This document shows, piece after piece, positions 3,131-27,521 of a DNA stretch of 64,000 nt (its first letter is position 1; each line of letters starts with the position of its first letter). This DNA is from a bacterium UBA2214 (GTDB taxonomy: Bacteria > Zhuqueibacterota > Zhuqueibacteria > Residuimicrobiales > Residuimicrobiaceae), in contig DCUM01000165.1 in assembly GCA_002327255.1 (NCBI GenBank), positions 40,427 to 104,426 on the forward strand, given 5' to 3'. Under the pieces are notes generated by a model. The model saw nothing but the letters and a program-made list of their open reading frames with translations, was not told where the DNA came from and searched no databases. The position numbers were made by a program, and so were the translations under genes.

Positions 3131-3798
3131 ATTTCTCCTTCTCCAAGATCTCTACCGGTTAAGATCCTCTGGAATCGGCTCACGAAGAGCTGCCAGATAT
3201 GACGCTGAATTTCGGCGATGGAGCGATCGCCGGGAATGAGGGCAACGCGCAACGGTTCCGCCTCGGCAATGCGCAAATAGCCCTGCCGCACGCGTTCCTG
3301 AAAGGCAAGACCGGCGGACTCCATGCGATCCGCTCCCCCCAGACGCTTGACGATCCGCTTGCGAATGAGCCGGGGATCGGCATCGATGATGCAGGTCAAA
3401 TCGGGGAGCAGGCCGCCGGACCCCATCCGATTGGCGGCCTCAACCAGCTGCAAATCGAGCTGCCGGCCATATCCCTGATAAGCGGTTGTGGAATCGAAAA
3501 AACGATCGCAGACCACGATGCGATTTTCCTCAAGGGCCGGTTTGATCTGCTGCGCAACCATCTGGGCCCGGGCGGCTTCATAGAGCAGCAATTCGCTCCA
3601 GGGGCTCATCTCGGTGTGCTGCCTGTCGAGCAGGATGGCGCGAATGCGTTCCGAGATCGCATTGGCGCCGGGATCCCGAAGCGCGGTGACGGTGAAGCCG
3701 GATTGCTGCAGCTGCGCGATGAACAGGCTCGCCTGCGTCGATTTGCCGGAACCATCACACCCTTCAAAGGTGATGAAAAGTCCCCGCTTGTCCGTCAT
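3127..3798 (-). CDS. tmk: Thymidylate kinase
   Basis: P-loop FITFEGCDGSGKSTQ plus a DRF/lid region. Start trimmed to the MTDKRG Met so it abuts the upstream MATE stop. 4-bp overlap with ctp. Confidence 0.85.
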   Translation of the reverse strand: MTDKRGLFITFEGCDGSGKSTQASLFIAQLQQSGFTVTALRDPGANAISERIRAILLDRQHTEMSPWSELLLYEAARAQMVAQQIKPALEENRIVVCDRFFDSTTAYQGYGRQLDLQLVEAANRMGSGGLLPDLTCIIDADPRLIRKRIVKRLGGADRMESAGLAFQERVRQGYLRIAEAEPLRVALIPGDRSIAEIQRHIWQLFVSRFQRILTGRDLGEGEI

Positions 3799-10329: not shown

Positions 10330-12561
10330 TCAATTTCCCGACAGAAGGCAAACCTTCTCTACGGTGTGTTTTGATCCATAAACAAATTCAATAAAATAGA
10401 GGCCACTCGCGACGGTATCATGCCGGGCGTCTCTGCCATTCCACAGGATGGGGTATCTGCCCGCCGTCGCCTCACCCTGATACAGCGTACGCAGCTTCTG
10501 TCCCATTGTGTTGTAAACCGTTATGGTCAGCCGCTGCGCGGATGTCGAGGTCACCGGAATCTCATAATCGATATTGGTTGAATAGCGGAAGGGATTGGGA
10601 TAGGGCCGCGAAACGCGAAAAGCGATGGGCGGCTGGTCATCGGGATCTTCCGGCAACTCTTCAAGCCGAAGGAGGGCAGCGGCGGCGCAATTGATCTTGC
10701 CATAGCCCCATTGATCCTTTTTGGCGCCGCCCTGAGCCCTCGCCGTGTAGATCAGTGCCTGTTTGATGCGCGAGGCGGGCGCCTCGGGATATTTTTCCAG
10801 CAGCAGGGCGACGGTGCCGCTGACGTGGGGCGCGGCCATGCTCGTCCCCAGAGACAAGGCATGCACGCCATCGGGCAGCACAAAGGCATTGGGATAGGAG
10901 ACATCCGGCGAGTTGAAGATGCTGTAATACCCCCCGGGCCTGGCCTCCTGCGACAGCGAGCTGCCGATGATGCGGCCCGGCGCGGTGATTTCGGGTTTGA
11001 TGCGGTCATCACGGCTCGGTCCGGCCCCGGAAAATTCGGCGACCTCGCCGATGATGATAGTACCCTGCGTATCGATGGTCAAATTGTTGCCGTCCAGATC
11101 CTTCCAGGTCTCGCGCGTGGTGTAGGCACCCACCGTGATCGCACTTTTACTCGTGCCCGGGATGGTTAATGACATGCGATCGCTGACGCCCGTCTTGAAA
11201 ACCGCCTCCATACTCACGCTCGCCAGCCAAAAGTGCACCTCGCCGGCGCGGCCGCTCAATTTGACGGTCCATTCTCCCGCGTACGGCAAAACCCCCAGGT
11301 CATCACAGACTTCGATGATGATTTCCTTATCCTGGTTGAAGGGACTGACGCCCGGCTGGATATCGCTGCCCTCTTCGTAATAACCATTCCAGATCAGTAC
11401 CTGGCCATCGCTGCTGTTGCGGCCGAGATATTTGCCGTCGTTGACGGGTCCAAAGGTCTCGCCGCGCGGCGAGATGACCGTCACACTGAGCGAATGCGTG
11501 CCATCATACCAGCCGTCGAGTACAAAATGATCGTTGCCGGAACCGGCGTTGGGCGTATACTCCGGCACGGAGACGGAGATCTGGGCGCTGGAGGAGGTCA
11601 GCGAGGCCTGGGCGTGCGTCTTTTTGCCGCCTTCATTGCCGGCGGCGACGACCACGACGCGACCCGGCCCGGAGAGATCATCGATGTAACGCTCCACCGC
11701 GGTGGTACCGTCATGGGCGCCGAAATTGGTGCCAAAGCTCAGGTTGACGACGCAGGGCATGCCGAGCAGGGTGGCGACGCTGTCGATGAAGCTGATGGCG
11801 AGCAGCTGGTCGGTGCTGCTGAATTCCGACTTTAAGGCATTGCGGGTGGCCTTGACGGCAATCAGATTCGCCTGCGGCGCCACACCCGCAAAGGCGCCAT
11901 ATTCCGCGCCGCCGCCGCCGTTCCCTGCGGCGATGCCGGCGACGTGGGAACCGTGGCCGCTGTTATCTTTTTGCAACACCATCGGGTTTCCCGACAGCGC
12001 CGTATTGATCTGCGCCTCGTTATAGACCGTGCCCCCGTAATAGGAGCCGGGCGTGCTGAAATCGAGGATGTATTTGATGCGCGTTGCGCCATCCGCCGTA
12101 CGAAAATCGGGATGGGTGTAATCGATGCCGGAATCGACGATGCCGATGAGGACGTTTTTGCCGCTGAGGCCGGTTTGATCGCGCGCCTGCAGGGCGCCGA
12201 TCTCTTTCATGCTGATGTCCGCGACCGGCGTGGCGATCTGGCTGGCTTCGAGATAGCGCAAGCCGGGCACGTTCAGCAGAGCGTCCAGTTTGTCCACCGC
12301 CATGGTGACAATGGCCAGCTCGCCGCGCTGCCAGCGGATTTTTCCGCCCTGCGCTTCCATGTCGCGGCGGTGAAAGACGCCGGAGGCGATGACATCCACA
12401 GAGTGGCTGGCAGACTGTCTGGCCAGTGCCTCCGCATTCTGTTGTTTAAACCGCATCATGCCAAGGGATGCATCCATGCGCGCTGTTTGCGCCCATGATA
12501 CCCCGCACAGGGCCAGCATCATCATCATGAGCACTCGCCCAAAACGTTTCCCGGTCATCAC
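10330..12561 (-). CDS. Secreted S8 (subtilisin-family) serine peptidase with a T9SS C-terminal sorting domain
   Basis: Signal peptide. Asp block IGIVDSGIDYTHPDF, His block SGHGSHVAGIAAG, Ser block GTSMAAPHVSG. C-terminal ~80 aa (ITVYNTMGQKLRTLYQGE...SGLYFIEF) resembles a type-A Por secretion CTD. Confidence 0.8.
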   Translation of the reverse strand: MMTGKRFGRVLMMMMLALCGVSWAQTARMDASLGMMRFKQQNAEALARQSASHSVDVIASGVFHRRDMEAQGGKIRWQRGELAIVTMAVDKLDALLNVPGLRYLEASQIATPVADISMKEIGALQARDQTGLSGKNVLIGIVDSGIDYTHPDFRTADGATRIKYILDFSTPGSYYGGTVYNEAQINTALSGNPMVLQKDNSGHGSHVAGIAAGNGGGGAEYGAFAGVAPQANLIAVKATRNALKSEFSSTDQLLAISFIDSVATLLGMPCVVNLSFGTNFGAHDGTTAVERYIDDLSGPGRVVVVAAGNEGGKKTHAQASLTSSSAQISVSVPEYTPNAGSGNDHFVLDGWYDGTHSLSVTVISPRGETFGPVNDGKYLGRNSSDGQVLIWNGYYEEGSDIQPGVSPFNQDKEIIIEVCDDLGVLPYAGEWTVKLSGRAGEVHFWLASVSMEAVFKTGVSDRMSLTIPGTSKSAITVGAYTTRETWKDLDGNNLTIDTQGTIIIGEVAEFSGAGPSRDDRIKPEITAPGRIIGSSLSQEARPGGYYSIFNSPDVSYPNAFVLPDGVHALSLGTSMAAPHVSGTVALLLEKYPEAPASRIKQALIYTARAQGGAKKDQWGYGKINCAAAALLRLEELPEDPDDQPPIAFRVSRPYPNPFRYSTNIDYEIPVTSTSAQRLTITVYNTMGQKLRTLYQGEATAGRYPILWNGRDARHDTVASGLYFIEFVYGSKHTVEKVCLLSGN

Positions 12562-12614
12562 CCTTCTCCGCCAGATAGGACTATTCCAGTGAATTCACAA
12601 GCCAGGCAGCTGAT

Positions 12615-14027
12615 TCATTCTACATTCGATATGCCGCGATGGATTTCCAGCAATTCCTGCCAGTTGGGATTATAGTTCTCGCCGCGCATGGTGCTGTGCA
12701 CCAGCGTATAGGTACCCTGATTTTTGAGATCGATGAAGACAAAGTTCACGCCTCCCTGAATCGCATCGTACGTCCAGATTTGATAGCCCCTGCCGGTGCT
12801 GCTGGAAGGATAACGATCGATATCGGAAGGGATGCCATAGAGCATGGCGGCGCGGCCGCGGTCTGTCTTCCAGCCGGCGGAACCCTCCCTGAAATTGCTG
12901 TTGGCATATTCCGCGCGCTGCAGATACTCCTGACGGAATTCATTGAGCGGCGTGCCGGGGTCGGGGTCGCGCAGCCGCCAGAACATGCTCAAAAAGGAAC
13001 GCATCGCCCTGGTGGTGTTGAGCTGGGCCAGCAGTTTTTGCGTCTCCCGGTCCGCCAGGTAATGGATGTACCGGATTTCGCGGGCGACCTGGACCGAATC
13101 GAGAGCCTCATAGAATGCCACGCCGCGCGCCGTCTCCGGATCGCTTTCGCTCTCCGTCGGGGTATAGGATGGATGGGAGAAATAAAAACGTTTCCGGGTA
13201 TAGGTGACGCGCGTCTCCCCGGAATCGGCGACCGCAAAATAGAGCCAGTACCAGCCGCTCGGCAGCGGGGTGAGAGGCACCCATCCCACTTCGATCATGG
13301 TGTCGCCCGACCTGGGGCGCAAGCGCTTTTTTTCGGGAATCTTTTCAATTTTATACCCATTGTCGTCGCCGAGCCAATAGAGTATCTGGTAATGGTGGTG
13401 TGCGATGTTTTCCGCGAGATTGTACAACTCGACGTAAAACCACAGCATGCTGGACGCTTCCGAGTAGTAGCGCGCGATATTGGGCGTCACTTCGATATTG
13501 TTTTTGATGAGCACCGGACTCGATGAGGCGTCGGCATTTTGTATTTTGGTGCAGAGCACCAGATCGCTGAGTGCGAGCGCGTCTCCCGCGATGGCTTCAT
13601 TCCTGATCGGCATCACGACGCTGTCCGCATGGGTGCCGGACGGGTCGGTGACTCTGATCCTGGCCTGGTAATCCCCGGGCACCAGCGTATAGCGCAGCAG
13701 ATCGATGCGGTTCTGTTGCTGCCACGAGGTATCCTTTTTCGAGAAGAGCATGCGCCAGCGTTTTTGATCGATGGGCGCATCCTCCTTTTCCAGAGTGAAA
13801 TCGATCACCAGCGAGCAGACGCTATCCGCCGCGGCCGTGGAAAAGAGTTCCCACTTGAGCGGATTGATGTTGTAAAAAATCTCGACATTGGTTTCCGTGG
13901 CAGTGCCGCGGAAACGGGCATAATCAGTCTGAACAATGGCTGTCTCCTCCGCATGGAGGACAAAGCAGAGACTGATTAGTGAGATAATGAGAAGGGCCCG
14001 GAACTGGTACATGATCGATCCTTTCAA
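12615..14027 (-). CDS. GWxTD domain-containing secreted protein
   Basis: 470 aa with a signal peptide and the eponymous motif NFREGSAGWKTDRGRAAMLYG near the C-terminus. Confidence 0.7.
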   Translation of the reverse strand: MKGSIMYQFRALLIISLISLCFVLHAEETAIVQTDYARFRGTATETNVEIFYNINPLKWELFSTAAADSVCSLVIDFTLEKEDAPIDQKRWRMLFSKKDTSWQQQNRIDLLRYTLVPGDYQARIRVTDPSGTHADSVVMPIRNEAIAGDALALSDLVLCTKIQNADASSSPVLIKNNIEVTPNIARYYSEASSMLWFYVELYNLAENIAHHHYQILYWLGDDNGYKIEKIPEKKRLRPRSGDTMIEVGWVPLTPLPSGWYWLYFAVADSGETRVTYTRKRFYFSHPSYTPTESESDPETARGVAFYEALDSVQVAREIRYIHYLADRETQKLLAQLNTTRAMRSFLSMFWRLRDPDPGTPLNEFRQEYLQRAEYANSNFREGSAGWKTDRGRAAMLYGIPSDIDRYPSSSTGRGYQIWTYDAIQGGVNFVFIDLKNQGTYTLVHSTMRGENYNPNWQELLEIHRGISNVE

Positions 14028-14190
14028 TGGTGCACGGTCGTGCCGAAATGACTTGCCTATAATGTAATAAATAAATAATCATGAAGCAAAAGAAAAAGCC
14101 GGAGCGGCCAGGCGTGTGCGGATGAAGCGGTGAGGCGCGCGGAGAAAAGAGGTTCGGCGGTGTTAATGGCAGAGCTCTCTTTCAGTAAAC

Positions 14191-14223
14191 AAAAAGCGGG
14201 TGGCCGAGGAGCAGCCACCCGCT
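14191..14223 (-). terminator. Rho-independent terminator after the PorV-like barrel gene
   Basis: Plus strand AAAAAGCGGGTGGCcgaggagcaGCCACCCGC. On the minus strand this is a 9-bp GC stem followed by TTTTT. Confidence 0.55.
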
Positions 14224-14245
14224 GTGATCAGAAAGTCCGTGCAGA

Positions 14246-15286
14246 TCAGAAGCCGATCTTCACCGTGAACATCTGATTGCTGTCAAAGACTTCGACGAAG
14301 CGGTAGGCGTAATCGAGGGTCAGATCGATGCCGCCCATATCCTTGTGGAAACCGGCGCCGAAGCTCGGTCCGTAGATATAGTCCCAGCCATCCGGTACAT
14401 CCATGCCCATGGTGTAGCCACCGCGCAGGAAGACCATATTTCTGAAACTGTACTCCAGACCCATCTTGTTGTCGTCGAATGAAAAGTTATTGTTCTGGAA
14501 CATGTAAGAACCCGTGATGGTGCCCATTTCGCCAAAGTCGTGCGTATAGGCAAGGCCGATCTCGAGCGCCGAAGGAAGTTCAAAGCTCGCCGGATCGACT
14601 TTCAGGCTGGTGCTGGGACGCGCACCATCATCCATTTTGCCCTGGCCGGTCAAACCGGAACCATCATAGGTCATGTTGCCGCCGAGGTTGCGCAAGGCCA
14701 TACCGAAACTGAGTCCATTGATGCCGGCGAAATTGACGTATTGCACACCGACATCCACGGCCAGCGTGCTGGCGCCGACGCGTTTGATTTCTTCATGGAC
14801 CAGATTCACATTGACGCCGAAAGAGACGTTATCGGTGAGGCCTTTGGCATAGGTCACGCCGAGGGTGAAGAAACTCGGCGAGAACATCATGCCCGTGCCA
14901 TCGGGATTGTCGGCCGTGGTGACTTCGATGTCACCGATGGACATGGCTTTCAATCCGAAACCGAGATGGCCGAAACCACCCAGATTGGCGTCTACTGCCA
15001 CGGTGTTCACACTCATATCGGCAATGTAGCCCATATGGGTGAACATGGCGGTGGCTGCAGCGTCCGAACGGGCCAGACCCGCCGGGTTCCAGTAGATGGC
15101 CTCTACGCCGGTGGCCGTAGCGGTCATTGCGCCGCCCATGGCTAAGCCCCGGGCGCCGACCGGAATGAGCAGTTGCGGCGCCGAGGACGTTCCCACGCGA
15201 TCATTTCCGCCGGCGAATCCCGCTGAACTGGCCAGCAGAGTGAAAGCCATGAGGAGAGCGAAAACTCGGAATACTGTTCGCATCAT
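14246..15286 (-). CDS. PorV/PorQ-family (FadL-like) outer-membrane beta-barrel protein
   Basis: 346 aa, signal peptide, N-terminal LLIPVGARGLAMGGAMTATATGVEAIYWNPAGLA typical of PorV/PorQ/FadL-like barrels. Alternating-residue strands and an aromatic C-terminal residue (F). Confidence 0.6.
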   Translation of the reverse strand: MMRTVFRVFALLMAFTLLASSAGFAGGNDRVGTSSAPQLLIPVGARGLAMGGAMTATATGVEAIYWNPAGLARSDAAATAMFTHMGYIADMSVNTVAVDANLGGFGHLGFGLKAMSIGDIEVTTADNPDGTGMMFSPSFFTLGVTYAKGLTDNVSFGVNVNLVHEEIKRVGASTLAVDVGVQYVNFAGINGLSFGMALRNLGGNMTYDGSGLTGQGKMDDGARPSTSLKVDPASFELPSALEIGLAYTHDFGEMGTITGSYMFQNNNFSFDDNKMGLEYSFRNMVFLRGGYTMGMDVPDGWDYIYGPSFGAGFHKDMGGIDLTLDYAYRFVEVFDSNQMFTVKIGF

Positions 15287-15328
15287 ATTATTAAAGCTCC
15301 TATTTTTTTGTCGTTCATCGCCGGGTTA

Positions 15329-18300
15329 TCAATAGACTTCGATGAATTCTTGCTCGCGCACCAGGGCGACTTTGATGATTTTGGCCTTGGCGATCTTGGG
15401 CATGTCGATGTGAGCGATATAGATGCCGCTCGCCACCGGCAGATTGTTGTGGTTGGTCAGGTCCCAGCGCAGGAATTGGGTAGGATCTTCCTTTTCCAGG
15501 ACTTTGACCAGGCTGCCGGCCAGATCAAATATCTTCACGGTCGCATATTGGGGCATGTGGTTGAACGTCACGAAGCGGTTGACCGGATTGGTTTCGCGCG
15601 GATTAAAGCCGTAGTAGGGATTCGGGAAGACCTTAATCGCTTCGATATCCGTACCCGCGACGCTGGCAGTATAGGTGCTCGCCTTGGTGCTGAATTTGAA
15701 GACATCAGCCGCCGTGTTCGGGAGTTTCGCCAAAAAGCGGAACTGGTCACCCGCTTTGGGGGCCGCACTGGGGCCGCGGCGCGCCGCCAGGCTCCAGTAC
15801 ATCACCGGATAGTCACCGTCGAGCAGTGAAGTCATCAGGGCCGGTTTGCTATCCGCCGTGTATACGGTCTCAAAGATCCACAGCCATTCGCGCGGGCCGG
15901 CCGAAGCGGTGTTGCTGCCTGCCGGTGCCGCGAGCGTATAATCGGGCGGCCAGTACTTGCCGTCCACCAGACCGGCGGCGACGTTGTTCTCCATGAAACC
16001 GATATCGAGCTGCTTGCCGGTGACTTCATCGATGGCGACGAACGGAACGACGCGGCGATCCTGAAACACCCACCCGGGTGAGGGGTTGACGATGAACGGG
16101 GCGAATTCGGGTTTGGCCGGAGCCGATGTGGCCGCACGCAGATAGCGGTAAGCCATGGACGAATTGGGATCGTTGGGATTCTTGAGATTGCCCTGGGCAT
16201 CCGTCTCGGCGAACTTTAGCAGGACGGGATGAATCTCACTGGCGACACTGCCCAGGCCCCAGAAATCGGTGTATTCAAAGCCGTCGCACATGGCGCCATT
16301 GAATTGGCTCAAGCCGTAATCACCGGCACCTCCGGCCCAGGTCCACCAGCGGTTGGCAGCCGGTATGGCTTCCCATCCCGCCATGCCGGGCAATGAGCCG
16401 TATTCCTGCACGACCACACCGTTGAAGACGGGGCTGTTGGCGCCAAAGGTGGCCGGATCTTCATAGACTTCCTGAAAGATCGCCTTGTTCGCCGTGGCGT
16501 TGTAGAGCGACCAGAAGGTACTGTCGTTGCGCACCTTGAAATAGACTTCGTAATTGGCGTCAATGGTTTTGGTGGGATCCACCACCGTGGCGATGATTTC
16601 ACCATTGGAAGGTCCGACATGTTCCACTTCGAGAACCTCGCCATCGACGTGCATGTAGCGCACGCCGGGGTTGGGCGATTGCGGCACGGCTTTGAGGACC
16701 ACCGGGGTGCTTTCCAGCGCATGCACCGGCACTTCGGGATCGCCGTTATTGTTGTAGGCGGTGACCACGAAAAAGTACTCGGTGCCGTTCACCAGCGGTT
16801 TGCCGGTGAAGACGTCCTGGGTGATCACGAACGAACGGGAAAGACCCGTGTTGGTGCCGAACTTGACCGGTTTGTTGACGATGTAGCCGCTCGATGGATC
16901 AAACTGCAGGTCAAAGATGGTCGAGACCAGGTTATCGACATCGATGGTGGCCAGACGCCTTCCTTCGCTCAGCTGGGCGCTGGCGCTGGGCAGCTGATAG
17001 ACCACATACCCTTCGAAATGGTACCCCAAAAAGTTCTGGGTCTCGATCTCGTTGAGCAGCTCGTGATCTTCGCCCCAGTTGAGGACGATCTTTTGGTTGA
17101 GTTCGGCGACATGCACCTTGGGGGAGGGCGGCGCCACGGGGAGCACGAAAAAGTTATCGTACGCTGATTGTGCCGAGATGTCGTTGAACTTCATCACCGC
17201 CACGCTCGACTGACGGTCGCCGCCGAGGCCGAATACCGCGGCCACAACGACTTCCTGGGTATCACCATAGGCCAGCTTGAAGGGTCCGGTGATCATCTGC
17301 ATGCGGCGGTCGCCGGGGGTGAGGATGACGCCGTCGAGATCGCCGGTGCCCTGTACCGGATCGCCGGCCAGCGGGAAGCGGGTCGGATTGCCCTTGCCGT
17401 CAGTAAAAGCACTGGTGCCGGCCGGGATCAGTCCGTTCATCATGTTGTACCACTGCCGCGTGCCGTCATAGACGCCCTGGGGCGGATCGGTGATGGACGA
17501 ACCGGCGGCGAAATAGTTGAAGGCGCTCATCTTCAGGTTTTTGTAGCCATGGCGCAGCGTGCCGTTGAAAATGGCGACATCGTCCGGATTGCCGGTGGGG
17601 ACAATGGGGCCCTGGAGAAAGTCGTAGCCGCCGGCAGGCGGTGGCAACTCGAACTTGTCATAGTTGAGATCGCGCGCGTTGGCGTTGTAGACAAAGGAGA
17701 GGGCCAGCGTCGTATCGCAGCCGACGAAATCGTCGCCCGCTTCTCCGAGATCAGGGTCAGACCACGCCGCGAAGAAGCAGCTGTCGACATAGGCGTTGGT
17801 GGGGGTGTTTGACATGCCTTTGTACATCACCTTGTACTTTTTGAAGGCGACGTTGCCCAGCGCATCGGTGCGCTTGTAACCCCACAGGGTCACCTGCATC
17901 TCGATGCCGATGGGTTCGGAACCATAGAAATAACGGGTCTGGGCGGCACTGAGATCATTGACCACATACCAGATCATCTGATCGGCGCCCAACTCACCGG
18001 GTTCCTCGATTTCACCGGGGAAATCGATCTTGCCGTTGCCATTCAAATCCTGGGAGTACCCCAGATCGAGTCTGCCGTTGCCGTTGACATCATAGAACGG
18101 CGCGCCCTTCTGCCAGGGCCATTCGAACCAGTCTTTCTCGTACTGTGCCCGGATGGCGTCCACCTGGCCCGCGGTGACGGAAGAGAGGTTGGTTTCGTTA
18201 TATTCGGCGGCGTCCTGCACCAGGTCCGCTGTTTTGTAATCGCGGCGGATACGCCAGATGCGAACATCGGCCGCGTTTGGATTTTCCGCAACGCCCGGGC

Positions 18301-18652
18301 TGAGGATAGCGCCTGGCGTCAAACCGGTACGGTAAGCAGAACCACCCACGCGCAATTCCGGGGTCATGCCGTCTTTCACCATACCGCCCCACAGCAAGCC
18401 GGATTCATAGATCACCGCTGCGGTGAGACGGGGGAAGAAGGCGCCGGATTGACCGGACGGAGCCAGGGCGCCGTTGCCGGTATTGCGCATCCAGTAGGTC
18501 ACGTTATTGATGTTGAGCAACGTAATAACCGGACTGCCCGACGTTTTTTGCAGGGCAGCTTGCCTGTCCTGATCGTTTTTGGCCCAGGTCGCGGAGGAAA
18601 ACAACACCAGGGCCAACCCGGTAATTAATAGAACATATGCAAATTTTCTCAT
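15329..18652 (-). CDS. Large (1107 aa) secreted protein of unknown function with a T9SS type-A C-terminal sorting domain
   Basis: Signal peptide MRKFAYVLLITGLALVLFSSATWA. Repeated beta-rich segments. C-terminus YATVKIFDLAGSLVKVLEKED...WDLTNHNNLPVASGIYIAHIDMP matches the T9SS CTD pattern. No catalytic motif recognised. Confidence 0.7.
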   Translation of the reverse strand: MRKFAYVLLITGLALVLFSSATWAKNDQDRQAALQKTSGSPVITLLNINNVTYWMRNTGNGALAPSGQSGAFFPRLTAAVIYESGLLWGGMVKDGMTPELRVGGSAYRTGLTPGAILSPGVAENPNAADVRIWRIRRDYKTADLVQDAAEYNETNLSSVTAGQVDAIRAQYEKDWFEWPWQKGAPFYDVNGNGRLDLGYSQDLNGNGKIDFPGEIEEPGELGADQMIWYVVNDLSAAQTRYFYGSEPIGIEMQVTLWGYKRTDALGNVAFKKYKVMYKGMSNTPTNAYVDSCFFAAWSDPDLGEAGDDFVGCDTTLALSFVYNANARDLNYDKFELPPPAGGYDFLQGPIVPTGNPDDVAIFNGTLRHGYKNLKMSAFNYFAAGSSITDPPQGVYDGTRQWYNMMNGLIPAGTSAFTDGKGNPTRFPLAGDPVQGTGDLDGVILTPGDRRMQMITGPFKLAYGDTQEVVVAAVFGLGGDRQSSVAVMKFNDISAQSAYDNFFVLPVAPPSPKVHVAELNQKIVLNWGEDHELLNEIETQNFLGYHFEGYVVYQLPSASAQLSEGRRLATIDVDNLVSTIFDLQFDPSSGYIVNKPVKFGTNTGLSRSFVITQDVFTGKPLVNGTEYFFVVTAYNNNGDPEVPVHALESTPVVLKAVPQSPNPGVRYMHVDGEVLEVEHVGPSNGEIIATVVDPTKTIDANYEVYFKVRNDSTFWSLYNATANKAIFQEVYEDPATFGANSPVFNGVVVQEYGSLPGMAGWEAIPAANRWWTWAGGAGDYGLSQFNGAMCDGFEYTDFWGLGSVASEIHPVLLKFAETDAQGNLKNPNDPNSSMAYRYLRAATSAPAKPEFAPFIVNPSPGWVFQDRRVVPFVAIDEVTGKQLDIGFMENNVAAGLVDGKYWPPDYTLAAPAGSNTASAGPREWLWIFETVYTADSKPALMTSLLDGDYPVMYWSLAARRGPSAAPKAGDQFRFLAKLPNTAADVFKFSTKASTYTASVAGTDIEAIKVFPNPYYGFNPRETNPVNRFVTFNHMPQYATVKIFDLAGSLVKVLEKEDPTQFLRWDLTNHNNLPVASGIYIAHIDMPKIAKAKIIKVALVREQEFIEVY

Positions 18653-18712
18653 AGATGATCAAACCTCCAGTTTTAGAACGTGTAGTCAAAGCCCGTTGCT
18701 GACCACGGTTCC

Positions 18713-21700
18713 TTAGTAGTTGATGTACAGACCGACTCGGATCTCGCGCGGCTGTCCCCAAAGATCACCGGGATAACCCGCGATGGTCCAGTTTTGACCA
18801 TTCAGATCGTTAAATTTCTGCAACATCATCTTGTAGCCCGAACCGGTTTCAGAGGCGAGTTTCAGGCCGCTGAGGGATGGATCCGCCAAAAAGCCGTCGA
18901 TGTCCGAACCGGTGCGCGGCCAGACGTTGAGGATATTTTTGGTGTTGAGCAGGTTCTGGGCATAGATGTAGACATTGACGTCAAATTTGCCGATGGAGAT
19001 GGTCTTGTCCAGGCGGCCGTCGAGATAGAAGGTCCACGGCGTCATCGAAGAGCCGATGGGCTCGAGCGGACGGCGGGAGCGGGCATCGGAACCGTTGCCG
19101 GCTGCGCCGGACTGGGCATCGACCTGTCCAAGAGCGCCACCGCTGAGCGTGTAGGGGTGTCCGCTGCTGAACTTGAAGAGCAGATTGAGGCCGAGTCTCT
19201 CGAGGATCGGGCCGCCATCATCCTTGTCAAAGCGGTAATCGAGGTTGATGTTGCCGCTGTGGGGATGGTTGAAATAGGTCGGCGTGATGATCGTGATCTG
19301 ACGGGTTCCCTGATCCAGGGCCGCACTGCTTTGGTTGACATACGAACCGGTGCCGCGGGCGGTCTGGTAGGTATAGTTCACCCAGCCCATGACGCGGTTG
19401 ACGCGGCGCATGGTGTAGCGGAACTCGACGCCCTTGGAGGTCGAGAATCCACCATTGGTGGTGATGTCATAGGGCTGTACGCCCGACTCGGGAGACGTGA
19501 AGACACGCTGCGTCTGGAGTTGATCCTTGATGTCCTTGTAGAAGAGGGTGACATCGAAGGAGGCGTTGTCGGCGAATTGCTGATTGAATCCCACTTCGTA
19601 GGAGGTGGTGCGTTCCGGATCGATGCGGAAGGCGAACGGGTTGGTGAAAAAGTTACCCGAGGCGCCGATATTCATGGCGCGGTTCCACATCGAGCGGTAG
19701 ACCTGCGTCATCTGCGGCATCATGATGTACTTGCCCCACTGGAAGTGGAACTTGGTGCGATCGGTGACCGGGAAGGAGAAGCCCAGTCGCGGACTGACCG
19801 TGACAGACGCTTTCACTTTGTCATAAGCAGATTCCATCAACACGTTGTTCTGGCGATCGTAGCCGGGGTTGGTGTAATCCTTCGGTTCCCAGGTCTGCAT
19901 GTCATAATAGTCCAGACGCAGGCCCGAGTTGATCACCAGGTCCTTGTATTCATAGATATCATGCAAATAAGCGGCGCCGATGAGCGGATGGGGGGTCTTG
20001 TTGAAGAAGGGACCGCCGTCGGTCTCCTTGCCGAAGACGTCATAGCCGTAGATATTGGGCGCCAAAGAGATGAAGTACTGCTCCAGGGCGGCCGGATTCA
20101 GCAGGATGCCCGGATTGTTGCGCAGATAGAGATGAGAGCTGGCCGTTGTCGGCGCTGCGTAACTGCGCATGGTCCAGTACTGCATTTCACCGCCGAAGGT
20201 GAGGTTGTGGCGGTTGGTTTTCACCGTAAAGTCGAGGTTACCGCCGACATAGGAACGCTTGAAATAATTCAGCGAAGTGATCCAGGGACGTTCGGGGGCG
20301 GCAAAGGCGAAATCATAGATGCTGAGGGCGTAAGCCGGCTGAGCGTAACGGGCAAATGCGTTCGGGAAGCCCGCTTTGGCCTGCGCCAGGCTGTCGACAT
20401 AGGACCAGGCATCATCCTTGAAAAGGGGATCGTAGCTCTTGCCGCGGAAACCGCTGTGCGCCAGGCTCAGGGTATAGAAGGCGTTGGGCGAGAGGAAATG
20501 GGTCATCTTGGTGGTCAGCGTCATCTGGCTCTGCTCGTTGATGGAGCTGCGTTCGCGGCGCAGGAGGTTCGACAGCGGATCGCCGTTGCCGGACCAGCGG
20601 ATGTAGGAGCCGATGGCCGAGCCGCGCAGGGTGATGGATTTGCTCAGGTCATAGGTGAGGACGCCATTGTAATTGTAGCGGTTGCGCTGGTTGTTCCACG
20701 GGATGATACCGCCTTTCCAGTCCAGCACCTGCACGGTATCGCCATTGCCACCGAGCAGACCGGAATCCACCAGCTGCATGATCTGGCCGTCTTGGAGCAC
20801 GGTCTTGTTGTGTTCCAGCGTGAAGGGTTCCCAGAAGTTGCGGCTCTGGTCGCGGTCAAAGCGGTTTTCGCCCGCCACAAAGAATTTTACCTTCTTGTTG
20901 GTGTAGGGCACGGGGCCGCTGGCGGTGAGCACATAATCGGAATAACCATAGGAATAGGTGTCGAGGAATTTCTCACCCGGAGTGGCGAGCTGGTCGGTCT
21001 CGAGGCGGAGGCTGAAGCGGTAATCCGGCGTGCCGCTCTTGAGCACCGAAGCGATGATACCGCCGCTGGCGCCGCCGTACTGGGCGGTATAACCACCGGC
21101 CTGCATCTGCACTTCTTCCAGGGCTTCCGGAATCACCGTGGCCATGTTGCTGGCGCTGGAAATGCCAAAAGCGCCCGAAGAACCGACGACGTCGCGGGTA
21201 TTGACGCCTTCGACGTAATAGCCGACCGCGTCGCCGCGGCTGCCGCGGATGTAGTAGACGCCATCCTGCGTGACCACGCCGGGATTGAGCGCTGCGGCGG
21301 CGGTGACGCCACGGATGGGCAGGTTTTCAATCTGTTCCGTATTGAGAATACGGGTGGTATTGGTCGAGGTCTTTTCGATCAGGGGGCGTTCACCGATGAT
21401 GGTGATCTCCTGCCCCTGCAGCACCGAGGGCGTCATGTTGACGGTGACGCGTTCGGTCAGACCGATGCGAACACGAATGTTCTCGATTCTCATGGTGGCA
21501 TACCCGACAAAAGTCGCCTGCAGGGTATAGACGCCGACCGGGATGTTCTGGATATAGAACTCTCCGTTCACATCGCTGGCAGCGCCATAGGTGGTGCCCA
21601 CGAGCAACACATTGGTGCCAGGCAACGGCTCACCCGTTTCTTTGTCCTTGACAACACCCGAGATTCGTCCCGATGTGGTCTGGGCGAACCCGGGAATGGT

Positions 21701-21763
21701 GAGCATATAGAGCATGACAATTGCCAAGACGGCCGATAATAGAAAATGACGATGTCGAAACAT
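18713..21763 (-). CDS. TonB-dependent outer-membrane receptor (SusC/RagA-like) with an N-terminal carboxypeptidase-regulatory-like domain
   Basis: 1016 aa. Signal peptide, then SGRISGVVKDKETGEPLPGTNVLLVGTTYGAASDVNGEFYIQNIP (CarboxypepD_reg), a plug region, a long barrel, and a terminal ...RVGLYINY aromatic C-terminus. Confidence 0.85.
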   Translation of the reverse strand: MFRHRHFLLSAVLAIVMLYMLTIPGFAQTTSGRISGVVKDKETGEPLPGTNVLLVGTTYGAASDVNGEFYIQNIPVGVYTLQATFVGYATMRIENIRVRIGLTERVTVNMTPSVLQGQEITIIGERPLIEKTSTNTTRILNTEQIENLPIRGVTAAAALNPGVVTQDGVYYIRGSRGDAVGYYVEGVNTRDVVGSSGAFGISSASNMATVIPEALEEVQMQAGGYTAQYGGASGGIIASVLKSGTPDYRFSLRLETDQLATPGEKFLDTYSYGYSDYVLTASGPVPYTNKKVKFFVAGENRFDRDQSRNFWEPFTLEHNKTVLQDGQIMQLVDSGLLGGNGDTVQVLDWKGGIIPWNNQRNRYNYNGVLTYDLSKSITLRGSAIGSYIRWSGNGDPLSNLLRRERSSINEQSQMTLTTKMTHFLSPNAFYTLSLAHSGFRGKSYDPLFKDDAWSYVDSLAQAKAGFPNAFARYAQPAYALSIYDFAFAAPERPWITSLNYFKRSYVGGNLDFTVKTNRHNLTFGGEMQYWTMRSYAAPTTASSHLYLRNNPGILLNPAALEQYFISLAPNIYGYDVFGKETDGGPFFNKTPHPLIGAAYLHDIYEYKDLVINSGLRLDYYDMQTWEPKDYTNPGYDRQNNVLMESAYDKVKASVTVSPRLGFSFPVTDRTKFHFQWGKYIMMPQMTQVYRSMWNRAMNIGASGNFFTNPFAFRIDPERTTSYEVGFNQQFADNASFDVTLFYKDIKDQLQTQRVFTSPESGVQPYDITTNGGFSTSKGVEFRYTMRRVNRVMGWVNYTYQTARGTGSYVNQSSAALDQGTRQITIITPTYFNHPHSGNINLDYRFDKDDGGPILERLGLNLLFKFSSGHPYTLSGGALGQVDAQSGAAGNGSDARSRRPLEPIGSSMTPWTFYLDGRLDKTISIGKFDVNVYIYAQNLLNTKNILNVWPRTGSDIDGFLADPSLSGLKLASETGSGYKMMLQKFNDLNGQNWTIAGYPGDLWGQPREIRVGLYINY

Positions 21764-21787
21764 TTATTCCTCCATCTCCACGAATAA

Positions 21788-22480
21788 TTAGTCAATGTAG
21801 AATTTTTGGGCTGATAGCGAAGCCTTGGGATTGTAGAGAACCACCAGATTGCCCGCTCCAGCTACGGGAGAAATCTCCATTTTGTACCATTCGTTGTTGG
21901 CGCTATCCAGGAAGCGAACCGTATAGTTGTAACCGGTTCCGGGGAAATGCTTGCCCACGGTCCTGGCAAAGGCCAAAGAGGCGCTGAGGGTTTCCGTGGT
22001 GGTGGAACCGTCAGCCGTTTTGGTTTTGACTAGGTCGACTTTGAAGGATGCGTCTGGACACATCTGGGCGACAAAGATGGCCATCTGGTCCGATGGCACC
22101 GGTTTGTACAACAGATGTTCCTGGAGTCTGAGGAACCGGCTGCTGTTGGCCGCATTCTTGGTGGCGACGAAATAGGTGCCCTGGAAATCGGTGGTGACCG
22201 CCAGGGTATCAGCGGCTTCGGAACCGGCCTGAAAAGCATATCTACCAGCGTTGACGGTCTGGTAATTCGTGCCTTTTCCCGGCGCCAAAGTGCCCACACT
22301 CTTTCCATCGAATTTCACGTCCAAGCTGCCCAGGTCAGCTGCCGTATTGATGATACGAACCTTTGCCTTGAGGACCGGCATGTTAATCCCGTCGGTCGGA
22401 ATTTGCACGCAGCTTACGACAAAGATCATAAGCAGGCAAGCCGAACCGATCAGGAGTAACCTTTTCAAGCTTGATTTCAT
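21788..22480 (-). CDS. DUF4397-like lipoprotein, putative surface partner of the TonB-dependent receptor
   Basis: 230 aa, lipoprotein signal (LLMIFVVSC), repeated RxxN beta segments (VRIINTAADLGSLDV...). Immediately upstream of, and co-oriented with, the receptor gene. Confidence 0.5.
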   Translation of the reverse strand: MKSSLKRLLLIGSACLLMIFVVSCVQIPTDGINMPVLKAKVRIINTAADLGSLDVKFDGKSVGTLAPGKGTNYQTVNAGRYAFQAGSEAADTLAVTTDFQGTYFVATKNAANSSRFLRLQEHLLYKPVPSDQMAIFVAQMCPDASFKVDLVKTKTADGSTTTETLSASLAFARTVGKHFPGTGYNYTVRFLDSANNEWYKMEISPVAGAGNLVVLYNPKASLSAQKFYID

Positions 22481-23203
22481 AATCTCTTACTCTCCTCAAA
22501 TTCGTTCACTTTCTGTTCTTGAAAGGAAAACTGGCCGATGAACTCATGCGGCGTGATTTGTGAAACCTTTCACCTTCTGGTGCGTAAAACAGTCATAAAA
22601 GGTTCGATGTGTGTGACCTCCTCTTTTTTATACCTCTGGCTTGATTAAGGTTGCGTTGGTTGAACTGTCCCAATAAAAAGCATTCCTGCATATCCATGCG
22701 GGGCTTCCCATACCCATCAGCTGCACAATGATGGCAAAAACCGCATTTTCATGCAGTCGAATGTTGAATTCAATTTGATTATTTTATGATGTAAACAACT
22801 TGAGACGGGAAATTGAGCACGATCATCAGCAACACATTGACGCATGCGTTAATCCTCTTTTCCATTCAACGACCATGAATGAGAATAAGGCTTCTAGCCT
22901 GACACCTTATGGGGCCAAAATTTTCTTTTAAAAAAGTGCTGAAACGCAAATAACCGGTCAATTGGTGACAACTTTCTACTCTTTTGGGGCCATGGGAAAT
23001 CAAGATGGTTTAATTACTGCAATTACAATTAATTATAGACAGGCTGCAAATTGAAGTGCCAAAGCAATAATTATTAGTATGTTGAGGTATATATTTTAGC
23101 CAAATAAAATAATAACCTGCTCGATACCGCCCAATATAAACAAATTTGAACTCGCCGTCAAGTTTTTTTTCTCGTTTTCGTCATTAATCTTCATAACTTT
23201 ACT
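22481..23203 (-). promoter_or_regulatory. About 720 bp AT-rich non-coding leader with a candidate sigma70-type promoter
   Basis: GC drops to roughly 38 %. No ORF of 60 aa or more. On the minus strand, TTGACG-17 nt-TATATT (about 23120-23150) reads toward the DUF4397 gene. An 8-bp direct repeat TGGGGCCA occurs at about 22906 and 22985. A GGAGAG RBS precedes the ATG at 22480. Confidence 0.4.
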
Positions 23204-23788
23204 TCACCGCAAATACCCCGTTATATTCCTCCACAGCGCCTCCTTACCCGCTTTGGTATGGGCTGAAAACGCCAGCAGAGTCTCCAGATCAAAGCCCGGC
23301 TGCGCATGCCGCAATTCTTCCAGGCGTTTGCGCAACTGCTGATTCGACAATTTATCGGCTTTGGTAGCCACCACCACATACGCCATCCCCTGCGTCCGCA
23401 GCCACGCCAGCAGCTGTAAATCCAGTTCCGAGAGCGCGTGGCGGATGTCGACCAGCACCACCACCAGGCGTAGTGATTCCGAGACGCCGAGATAGGTCTC
23501 GATCAGGCCCTGCCACGCCTGACGCAGGGTCCGGGAGGATTTGGCATAGCCATATCCCGGCAGATCGACAAAGTAAAATTGCTGATTGATGAGATAAAAA
23601 TTGAGGGTTTGCGTTTTGCCGGGCGTGGCGCTGACATAGGCCAGGCGCAGGCGATTGACGAGGGCGTTGAGCAGACTCGATTTGCCGACATTGGAGCGCC
23701 CGGCAAAGGCGATCTGGGGCAAGCGGTCGCGCGGCAAGTCTTCAACCCGGGCCACGCACCGGGCAAATTCAACCGAGGTGATCTTCAT
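23204..23788 (-). CDS. engB: Ribosome-biogenesis GTPase YsxC/EngB
   Basis: G1 GRSNVGKSSLLNAL, G3 DLPGYG, G4 TKADK. Start set to the ATG at 23786-23788 (MKITSVEF), preceded by a GGGAG RBS. Confidence 0.85.
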   Translation of the reverse strand: MKITSVEFARCVARVEDLPRDRLPQIAFAGRSNVGKSSLLNALVNRLRLAYVSATPGKTQTLNFYLINQQFYFVDLPGYGYAKSSRTLRQAWQGLIETYLGVSESLRLVVVLVDIRHALSELDLQLLAWLRTQGMAYVVVATKADKLSNQQLRKRLEELRHAQPGFDLETLLAFSAHTKAGKEALWRNITGYLR

Positions 23789-23849
23789 GGTCGCTCCCGA
23801 GTACAGCACAGAAAGTGTGCTGTATCATTTTCTCTGCACTTGCGGCCTG

Positions 23850-25124
23850 TTACGCCGCGGATTCCACAGAGTCCTTATCCGCGGCAGCGGTTTTGCGCCG
23901 CTTGAAGACCGGCTCCCCCTGCTTCTTCACCACAGCGGCGGTGATGCGGCAAGCGCTGATCTCCTTGCGCGACGGCAGCTGATACATGATCGACAGCATG
24001 GTCTCTTCCATGACCGAACGCAGGCCGCGCGCTCCGGCGCGCCGTTTCCGGGCGATGCGCACGATCTCGCGCAACGCCTCCTCCTCGAACTCCAACTCCA
24101 CCTCATCCAGCGCCAATAACTTGACATACTGCCGCGTCAGGGCGTTTTTGGGCTCGGTGAGGATTTTCAGCAAAGCCTCGTCATCGAGTTCATCCAGCGT
24201 GCACAGCACCGGCAAGCGGCCGGCGAGTTCCGGGATCAAGCCGAATTGCAGCAAGTCCTCCGGCTCCACCTGGTGCAGGATGGTGCTGATTTGCGTCTTT
24301 TCGTTCCTGTTCTCGGCGCCGAAGCCAAACGATTTTTTATCGAGACGGCTGCCGATCAGCTTCTCCAGCGACTCGAAGGCGCCCCCGCAGATGAAGAGGA
24401 TATTCTGGGTGTTGATGTTGATGAATTCCATCTCCGGATGCTTGCGGCCGCCTTTGGGGGGGACCGATGCCACGGTGCCTTCGAGAATTTTCAGCAGCGC
24501 CTGCTGCACGCCCTCTCCGGAGACGTCCCGGGTGATGGAGGGGTTGCCGCTCTTGCGAGCGATCTTGTCCAGTTCATCGATGTAGACGATGCCGCGTTCG
24601 GCGCGTTCGAGATTGTAGTCGGCCGCCTGCAGCAATCGCACCAGGATATTTTCCACATCCTCGCCGACATAGCCCGCTTCGGTCAGCGTGGTGGCGTCGG
24701 CAATGGTGAAGGGCACCTGGAGAAAACGCGCCAGCGTCTGCGCGATGAGCGTCTTGCCGGTCCCGGTCGGACCGATCAGCAGCACATTGCTTTTTTCCAG
24801 GAGGACGTCATCGCTGATGGCCGCATGGTCGATGCGTTTATAGTGGTTGTAGACCGCCACCGCCACGGTTTCCTTGGCACGCTCCTGTCCGATGACAAAG
24901 CGATCCAGCTCCGTCTTGATCTGTTCCGGGGTTGGAATGGGCCCCAGCGCCGTGGTGCTGCGCCGCGATTTTTCGCGCGCAACGATCTTGTCCGCGATGG
25001 CCACGCATTCGTTGCAGATGGTCACATCGGGACCGGTCACGATGGTTTCGACCTGCTGGCTGTTTTTGCCGCAGAACGAACAGATCACCAGACGGCGGTT
25101 GCCTTTATTGCGCTGATCTATCAT
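23850..25124 (-). CDS. clpX: ATP-dependent Clp protease ATP-binding subunit ClpX
   Basis: N-terminal zinc-binding CSFCGK...ICNECV, Walker [19 protein letters not shown], Walker [11 protein letters not shown]. Confidence 0.9.
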
Positions 25125-27289: not shown

Positions 27290-27438
27290 GCGTTGATCCT
27301 TTATATGGTTGAGTGCATCCGTTTCAAGACCATCCCGAACACATCCCGTCGAAAAAAAATCGCCGGATGCCAGTTGGACGCATACGACGACAGGATTGAA
27401 CCGTCAACGGCATCGGCCGGCGCCACGACGGGATGGGG

Positions 27439-27521
27439 TGCGAGAGGGGGGACTCGAACCCCCAAGTCCTTGGGACACCAGATCCTAAGTCTGGCGCGTC
27501 TGCCAATTCCGCCACTCTCGC
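27439..27521 (-). tRNA. tRNA-Leu (anticodon TAG), long variable arm
   Basis: Reverse complement folds as a cloverleaf: acceptor GCGAGAG/CTCTCGC, D-arm GCG-GAATTGGCAGA-CGC, anticodon stem CCAGA/TCTGG with loop CTTAGGA (anticodon TAG), a 14-nt variable arm, T-arm GGGGG-TTCGAGT-CCCCC, discriminator A. Confidence 0.8.

Follow-up and report, generated by a model that had tools for sequence, protein, structure and literature searches.

A conserved predicted promoter and a Shine-Dalgarno-like box in the long AT-rich gap upstream of a T9SS-linked outer-membrane operon in an apparent relative of candidate division KSB1

The 5' untranslated region of Escherichia coli ompA, which stabilises the mRNA of an abundant outer-membrane protein, is 133 nt long, and its 5'-terminal stem-loops act against RNase E. 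Stand-by sites, such as that of the E. coli tisB mRNA, serve structured, inaccessible ribosome-binding sites. A further leader element, the STAB-SD of Bacillus thuringiensis cry3A, was reportedly described by Agaisse and Lereclus in 1996. Of the 5' ends of the cry3A mRNA, the minor one is at -558 and the major one at -129, beside the STAB-SD, where the bound 30S subunit blocks the 5'-3' exonuclease RNase J1 (PMC4113751), and related polypurine mRNA stabilisers have been described (PMC2358910). In Bacteroides, the leaders of capsule operons are read by UpxY, a case of processive antitermination (PMC11685472). Here, we analysed a 64,000-nt stretch of contig DCUM01000165.1 (referred to as the window) and, within it, the 723-nt intergenic gap at positions 22481-23203, which separates engB from an operon linked to the type IX secretion system (T9SS). 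The reading that we favour, with a probability of roughly 45%, is that the gap consists of a promoter and a long, AU-rich and mostly unstructured leader of this operon, which carries a Shine-Dalgarno (SD)-like box for ribosome docking. On this analysis, the region would work most like a STAB-SD, and what would be new is the occurrence of such a leader in a phylum-level lineage for which none has been described.

The gap runs exactly from the stop codon of engB (23204) to the start codon of a DUF4397 gene (22480), and the genes flanking it are all on the minus strand. Its GC content is 38.3% versus 57.0% in the remaining window, and no other 723-nt stretch of the window is as low in GC, the difference being ~5.7 standard deviations (mean 0.567, standard deviation 0.032, next lowest 0.492). 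The longest open reading frame (ORF) within the gap is 45 aa. The low-GC, non-coding character for which the region had first been singled out (from the sequence alone; hereafter the original prediction) was therefore reproduced; the background GC content of ~62% given at that time is too high.

The host is, judging from its protein sequences, an uncultured relative of candidate division KSB1. The closest named homologues of its ClpX come from candidate division KSB1 and Zhuqueibacterota (70-73% identity), and ClpX proteins from metagenome-assembled genomes reach 77-90%. No close relatives were found in the GTDB species set, where the top engB match (51%) is not syntenic; engB homologues with 58-74% identity were found in metagenomes. 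Every relative contig that was fetched contains tig-clpP-clpX-engB, a long gap and then genes for a DUF4397 protein, a TonB-dependent-receptor-like protein and a large protein, except for one lineage that lacks the DUF4397 gene. The resulting comparison set comprises seven deep lineages with ~14 distinct leader sequences; the gaps of the relatives are 419-749 nt long, with GC contents of 33-47% versus 51-60% for their loci. In pairwise blastn comparisons between deep lineages, only two blocks align, Block A on the engB side and Block B on the operon side. Among closer pairs, leader identity is 0.65-0.82, and the flanking genes have an identity of 0.51-0.84 at their four-fold degenerate codon sites. 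Because the two ranges are similar, most of the leader appears free to drift, with only islands being constrained. The conservation in relatives for which the original prediction had called was thus found, both in position and in sequence blocks, and supports its reading of the gap as a long leader upstream of an operon with a TonB-receptor-like gene.

The same comparison bears on the proposal that the gap is a degraded remnant, that is, a functionless decayed gene, mobile-element scar or junction of a horizontally acquired island. Although the low GC content and the lack of ORFs give it the look of a decaying insert, the gap occupies the same place between the same flanking genes in seven deep lineages, its blocks are conserved far above the neutral level, and the similarity detected by tblastx is frame-independent and found at the blocks only. 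Moreover, no second copy of the region is present elsewhere in the 64-kb window, and no notable inverted repeats were found at the gap termini. With the position, the promoter and the proximal block all conserved, a remnant, which the original prediction had kept as an option, is very improbable.

Block A is a predicted distal promoter. Across the lineages, it takes the form AAAAAAAACTTGACG-N17-TATATTTG and lies 20-60 nt after the engB stop codon (~230 nt in L055); in the seven deep lineages, the A-tract, the two hexamers and the spacing of 17 nt do not vary, the L055 version being TTGACA-17-TACATT. The window sequence, TTGACG-17-TATATT, is present on the minus strand as originally described and matches the sigma-70/sigma-A-type consensus at 10 of 12 positions. 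By itself, this match is not significant (three promoter-like sites versus 2.0 +/- 1.2 in shuffled sequences). The extended pattern of A-tract, -35 and -10 elements occurs once in the window versus 0.01 expected; when metagenome contigs were scanned for it, 19 loci were obtained, 10 of which are syntenic and directly follow engB. The -7 motif of the Bacteroidota type is TAnnTTTG, and the -10 element of the relatives, TAtaTTTG, is compatible with this motif as well. Neither a second conserved promoter, whether sigma-70-like or TAnnTTTG, in the leaders nor a terminator-like hairpin between the engB stop codon and the promoter was found. The conservation across lineages in which engB is only 58-74% identical supports the predicted promoter, from which transcription would start at ~23126. 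Given the position of this promoter and the lack of any other conserved one, we infer that positions 22481-23126 form the leader. It is probable that the promoter fires and that the gap is transcribed as a single leader.

Block B is the second conserved element. Each leader of the seven lineages contains a single copy of the pattern ACG-N4-6-(A)GGAGGTGA-N3-6-GTTTC(A)A, located 75-145 nt upstream of the start codon. Pairing with 16S rRNA was computed with the near-universal 3' tail GAUCACCUCCUUA, which was assumed for the host. In the relatives, the GGAGGTGA(T) core is perfectly complementary to this tail, and the resulting duplex of 9-11 contiguous base pairs has an energy of -16 to -18 kcal/mol; the corresponding values for the real SD sequences of the same genes are -9.8 to -11.5 kcal/mol. 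No ATG, GTG or TTG is present 5-10 nt past the core in any lineage. A TTG at a spacing of 4 nt is found in L018, L036 and L055 only, where it opens non-homologous ORFs of 5-16 codons without a common frame. In addition, the conservation of Block B runs into GGUGA(U), past what initiation needs. The window lineage, and no other, carries a second SD-like box, GAGGAGGT, located 46 nt upstream of the core GAAGGTGA and ~136-143 nt before the start codon, and reading of the sequence revealed no ATG, GTG or TTG 5-10 nt past this box either.

The organism uses SD-led initiation. SD duplexes of <= -6 kcal/mol precede 86% of the crude gene calls versus 19% of random positions, a contrast that is inflated because the value of each gene is the best one among as many as six candidate starts and each random position was scored once. 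The real SD sequence is predicted to be accessible (probability of being unpaired, 0.66-0.98) in 4 of the 10 leaders (L018, L020, L032 and L051), and a stand-by site would therefore be unneeded in these four. The region resembles the tisB stand-by site in having a far-upstream element proposed to bind 30S subunits. It differs in these open SD sequences and in that its element is a full complement of the anti-SD sequence and not just single-stranded RNA. Because the box pairs more strongly and over a greater length than real start sites do, because GGUGA(U) is conserved and because the real SD sequence is open in 4 of 10 leaders, docking appears a better description of the function of the box than either initiation or stand-by binding.

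In the lineage of L024, L030 and L045-L050, the DUF4397 gene has been lost, and the gap directly precedes the receptor gene (L024 7595-8174). This lineage retains the promoter and the long leader as well as the SD-like box, now ~143 nt upstream of the receptor start codon, and it also bears the best internal hairpin and U-tract. Downstream of Block B, the leaders continue with an A-rich linker, a small hairpin, the real SD sequence and ATG. The position of the small hairpin is retained in the consensus of eight aligned leaders of the DUF4397 group, with differing sequences and three pairs in which both sides have changed.

A sequence of events can be proposed as follows. Transcription would start at the strong, deeply conserved promoter right after engB, and the polymerase would traverse a fast-evolving, AU-rich leader of 350-650 nt (~646 nt here) with few conserved islands; in some lineages, a hairpin and U-tract may terminate part of the transcripts. 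A 30S subunit would then dock, without initiating, on the box complementary to the anti-SD sequence, and the docked subunit would shield the downstream mRNA from 5'-end-dependent decay in the manner of a STAB-SD. In addition, the box may supply ribosomes to the real ribosome-binding site close by.

The likeness to the cry3A element lies in the distal promoter (-558 in cry3A versus ~-350 to -650 here) and in a 16S-complementary SD-like box that is located ~100-130 nt before the start, lacks a usable start codon and is separate from the real site. The features by which a STAB-SD is recognized in sequence, namely a complement of the anti-SD sequence >50 nt from the start codon and the lack of a start codon at functional spacing, are both found here. 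Several points weigh against our interpretation, however. The STAB-SD has been documented in Firmicutes and relies on RNase J, whereas the host here is a Gram-negative-type relative of KSB1. The window core GAAGGTGA is degenerate, with one mismatch and a pairing energy of -9.3 kcal/mol, and the box is predicted to be mostly paired locally (probability of being unpaired, <0.01) in the seven leaders scored, with partners that differ between lineages. The invariant ACG and GTTTC flanks, which have no counterpart in the STAB-SD, and their fixed spacing are not explained by 16S pairing; they suggest an additional protein or RNA partner. The transcription start, the read-through and the processing are predictions from sequence, as is the activity of the box, and the mid-leader hairpin and U-tract of some lineages are compatible with an attenuator or a separate small RNA as well. 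A specific role of the box as an mRNA stabiliser is therefore doubtful at present, and we propose it only tentatively.

The fixed flanks are also what would be expected of a sequence-specific DNA-binding protein, and the islands are short and collinear. The conserved segments might thus act at the DNA level, binding transcription factors or nucleoid proteins, or Block B might be an antisense promoter on the plus strand (TTGAAAC-N18-20-TATAAT) from which an antisense RNA spanning the leader would be made; its reverse complement indeed reads TTGAAA-N19-TATAAT in L018 and the L022 group. However, the spacer would be 19-20 nt, beyond the 16-18 nt tolerated by sigma-70 promoters, and the best-conserved bases of the block, GGAGGTGA, would fall in the spacer, a part that promoters do not conserve; an antisense promoter is disfavoured for these two reasons. 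Furthermore, the -10 element is degenerate in the window, L036 and L024, and no conserved antisense ORF or further antisense conservation was found, the folding z-score of the antisense strand being +0.93. We regard a function at the DNA level as quite unlikely.

Between the two blocks, weakly conserved islands are arranged in the same order. The C-rich, G-poor island C1 of the window aligns with ACCAACCCGTCTGTCCATG in L018/L057 and with ACCAGCCTTTCTATCCGT in the L022 group, and in profile searches of this region, L018/L057 and the L022 group matched each other above all shuffles. C1 is the stretch of 78 nt with the largest excess of C over G in 7 of the 10 leaders. In the middle of the leader, an nhmmer profile built from L018/L057 matched the window at 22685-22833 with a score of 17.3, which was reached by none of 300 shuffled targets; Blocks A and B had been removed for these mid-leader profile searches. 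The motif GTGCTC-N3-4-TT(T/C)CCG is common to the window, L018 and L057, with a looser form in the L022 group. Several lineages also contain an AT-rich island resembling (G)ATATGTATA-N-TAT.TGAT at ~+45 to +75 after the -10 element; in the window (23060-23100, minus strand), this island reads CTAAAATATATACC...ACTAATAAT.

Hairpins are the other recurrent feature of the leader body. A hairpin of variable sequence lies ~15-45 nt past the predicted start in several lineages, and in most lineages a GC-richer hairpin was seen by eye ~75-110 nt upstream of Block B, with unrelated sequences. In the lineage labelled d, the positional counterpart of the window hairpin consists of 14 interrupted base pairs followed by A-U7-8, ~250 nt before ATG. 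All six of its variants are paired, in 100% of the cells, and include one compensatory pair as well as several G-U pairs; G-U pairs in conserved hairpins work in the sense RNA only. The window hairpin has a folding energy of -15.4 kcal/mol over 60 nt, and its U-run is located ~199 nt upstream of ATG. Weaker combinations of a hairpin and a U-run were found in the window, L032, L051 and L055, and no counterpart was found in L018, L020 or L036.

These features raise the possibility of an attenuation or antitermination leader, in which an internal terminator, Rho loading in the C-rich islands or both would be controlled through the conserved islands by some protein, small RNA or ligand; such a leader could coexist with ribosome docking. 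The hairpin of lineage d is consistent with it, as are the weaker candidates that precede Block B by ~75-110 nt in the window, L032 and L055, the shared location (+47 to +67) of the most C-over-G-rich stretch of 7 of the 10 leaders and the collinear mid-leader islands. However, three lineages (L018, L020 and L036) have no terminator candidate, a simple terminator scan of the window yielded nothing convincing, and the excess of C over G is small (0.10-0.24). In addition, no antiterminator pairing was identified, there is no excess folding energy, and no Rfam riboswitch was found. The attenuator suggested in the original prediction is possible, with a hairpin and U-tract that are well supported in one lineage and weak in the window. 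Attenuation as the function of the region is, in our view, unlikely.

The similarity to UpxY-type leaders consists of a long leader before a long multi-gene surface operon in the same superphylum, Fibrobacterota-Chlorobiota-Bacteroidota, with a hairpin and U-tract in some lineages. The difference from these leaders and from riboswitches is that no Rfam match, no NusG paralogue heading the operon, no aptamer-like structure and no alternative pairing were found here. With ompA, the region shares a long untranslated leader before an outer-membrane gene and, in several lineages, an early hairpin, but its leader exceeds that of ompA 3-5-fold in length, its hairpin lies away from the predicted 5' end, and there is no sequence relationship.

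The folding and RNA-family analyses yielded no known or globally structured RNA. An Rfam scan of 21500-24500 at E <= 10 returned only chance-level matches (12-19 bits versus gathering thresholds of 35-60), that of the whole window at the gathering threshold returned only a tRNA-Leu, and that of the loci of five relatives at E <= 5 detected nothing within the leaders. Therefore, the original suggestion of a riboswitch or small RNA, which was to be checked by such a scan, is not borne out by any known family in the window or in the five relatives. Relative to dinucleotide shuffles, the window leader shows no gain in folding energy (z = +0.2 to +0.9), the z-scores of ten leaders range from -2.3 to +0.9 with a mean of ~-0.3, and the antisense strand likewise does not exceed shuffles. 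A large structured RNA was rejected on these grounds, as the sense and antisense leader and the leaders of nine relatives all fold like shuffled sequences. Two smaller candidates were also discarded. A riboswitch-like fold between Block B and the start codon has a consensus energy of just -1.4 kcal/mol, in which only the hairpin preceding the SD sequence is kept. A long-range pairing between C1 and the box is attractive by eye, but the best duplex with Block B is equalled by those of shuffled leaders, and its site is not constant. No conserved alternative (antiterminator) pairing or aptamer was detected, although the lineages are few and a small element could escape detection.

The hairpins could alternatively mark the end of a separate, lineage-specific non-coding RNA of 300-450 nt, with the operon having its own promoter near Block B. 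A strong conserved promoter followed, in some lineages, by a terminator-like hairpin and U-tract would suit such an arrangement, and the 50-nt segment past the hairpin of lineage d is nearly invariant. Promoters of this group may deviate from the sigma-70 consensus, and a proximal one could therefore be missed. Against this, the body of such an RNA would be poorly conserved (identity about that of four-fold sites), not unusually structured and variable in length (~200 to 450 nt), with much of it missing in L020. No conserved -35/-10 or TAnnTTTG sequence lies between the hairpin and Block B, and several lineages lack the terminator. We therefore regard a separate RNA as improbable.

A more far-reaching view of the ordered islands is that they constitute a lineage-specific cis-regulatory leader RNA of a new type, consisting in order of the 5' hairpin, C1, the GTGCTC...TTCCG island C3, the GC-rich hairpin and its optional U-tract, a CA-rich tract and ACG-GGAGGUGA-GUUUC. 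Conditional termination coupled to ribosome docking would then set the expression of the T9SS/outer-membrane operon, and the flanks of the box would be the site for a dedicated regulator and not for the ribosome alone. We consider this speculative and unlikely. There is so far no evidence for a new principle at this locus; it contains a clean, conserved and testable cis-element upstream of a T9SS/outer-membrane operon.

The leader does not encode a conserved peptide. The similarity detected by tblastx between lineages is equal in all frames, occurs on both strands and is confined to Blocks A and B, and the leader therefore contains no hidden gene. A small protein or leader peptide was considered and rejected, as no ORF, the longest in the window gap being that of 45 aa, and no frame is conserved across lineages. 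Several ORFs were called by annotation pipelines in or beside leaders (L001 4287-4385, 32 aa; L024 7755-8009, antisense, 84 aa; L052 4645-4848, 67 aa; L055 4566-4784, 72 aa). They look spurious, as each lineage has a different one and none is conserved between lineages. The two direct copies of TGGGGCCA to which the original prediction drew attention are present (22910-22917 and 22985-22992). However, the gap contains 3 pairs of exact 8-mer repeats versus 5.9 +/- 3.2 in shuffled sequences, and the motif was not found in the leaders of the relatives. With no enrichment and no conservation, these repeats are attributable to chance.

The features of the locus are listed in Table 1. The row of genes upstream of the gap consists of tRNA-Leu, tig, clpP, clpX and engB. 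The N-terminus of the DUF4397 product is a lipoprotein-type signal peptide (MKSSLKRLLLIGSACLLMIFVVSC). Because of its T9SS and PorV gene content, the operon behind the leader is a T9SS-linked outer-membrane cluster and not a classical nutrient-uptake TonB-receptor operon. The description of the downstream genes as a TonB-receptor operon is thus correct in that a receptor-like gene is present, but not as to the type of operon.

Table 1. Positions of predicted features in and around the gap (window coordinates)
Feature	Position	Strand	Remarks
engB/yihA GTPase gene	23204-23809	-	Closes the tig-clpP-clpX-engB row
Block A, predicted distal promoter	23133-23170	-	A8, 23170-23163; -35 TTGACG, 23161-23156; 17-nt spacer; -10 TATATT, 23138-23133
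Predicted 5' untranslated leader	22481-23126	-	~646 nt; A 31%, U 30%; from promoter position
Island C1, AAACCATCTTGATTTCCCATGGCCCC	22986-23011	-	Weakly conserved, C-rich, G-poor; ~115-140 nt past the predicted start
Mid-leader homologous segment	22685-22833	-	Island C3 CGTGCTCAATTTCCCGTCTC, 22802-22821; ATAAAATAA...TTCAAC...ACTGCATGA, 22741-22791
GC-richer hairpin followed by UUUUUAUU	22669-22741	-	T-run, 22679-22672; weak terminator/attenuator candidate
Second SD-like box, GAGGAGGT	22616-22623	-	-13.2 kcal/mol with the 16S tail; window lineage only
Block B, TTTTACGCACCAGAAGGTGAAAGGTTTCAC	22560-22589	-	ACG, 22585-22583; core GAAGGTGA, 22577-22570; GTTTC, 22566-22562
Small hairpin, TTCCTTTC-AAGAACA-GAAAGTGAA	22505-22528	-	Just before the real ribosome-binding site
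Real ribosome-binding site	22478-22497	-	GAGGAGAG, 22497-22490; 9-nt spacer; ATG, 22480-22478; DUF4397 gene
Operon behind the leader	10330-22480	-	DUF4397 through S8 subtilase; gene order after the leader same in relatives
DUF4397 lipoprotein (230 aa)	21788-22480	-	First gene of operon; Pfam/NCBIfam scans
TonB-dependent-receptor-like protein (1016 aa)	18713-21763	-	CarboxypepD_reg and Plug; Pfam/NCBIfam
Protein with T9SS C-terminal sorting signal (1107 aa)	15329-18652	-	Pfam/NCBIfam
PorV/PorQ family protein	14246-15286	-	Pfam/NCBIfam
GWxTD protein	12615-14027	-	Pfam/NCBIfam
S8 subtilase with T9SS tail	10330-12561	-	Pfam/NCBIfam

If the docking interpretation is correct, a ribosome-docking stabiliser design, so far seen in Bacillus and a few Gram-positive bacteria, would extend to an uncultured Gram-negative-type lineage near KSB1, and the operon for the TonB-dependent-receptor-like protein, T9SS cargo and PorV would be one that the cell invests in expressing strongly. 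The promoter and the SD-like box are compact and portable candidates for expression tools in such organisms, and the leader is a target for metatranscriptome mapping in anaerobic-digester communities, the apparent origin of several contigs (from sample names only). Even if the interpretation is wrong, the region would still be neither a known riboswitch nor a folded RNA nor junk, and the repeats originally flagged in it would be noise.

Several minor observations concern the neighbouring genes. The DUF4397 protein matched only itself among 5.8 billion clustered proteins in a word-indexed search, and the syntenic DUF4397 proteins of the relatives show just 27-38% identity by tblastn. The first gene of the operon thus evolves very fast, although the leader before it is conserved. 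The clpX-engB junction varies as well; the two genes overlap by 4 nt in L020, L022 and L024 and are separated by 40 nt in the window (23810-23849), by ~308 nt in L018 (3625-3932) and by ~434 nt in L055 (3567-4000).

The tRNA-Leu gene upstream of tig (27437-27521 in the window) is at a conserved position in all relatives examined (L020 3564-3646, L022 3737-3819, L024 3573-3655 and L036 4611-4693). Weak overlapping Rfam matches were obtained in the intergenic region upstream of tig, to anti-hemB in L022 and, in L024, to suhB at about the corresponding site before the tRNA gene. Beside the tRNA-Leu gene of L022, positions 3637-3693 (minus strand) gave a sub-threshold Rfam match to STnc310 (33.4 bits versus a gathering threshold of 40, E = 0.024), and this region may contain either a terminator or some small structured element.

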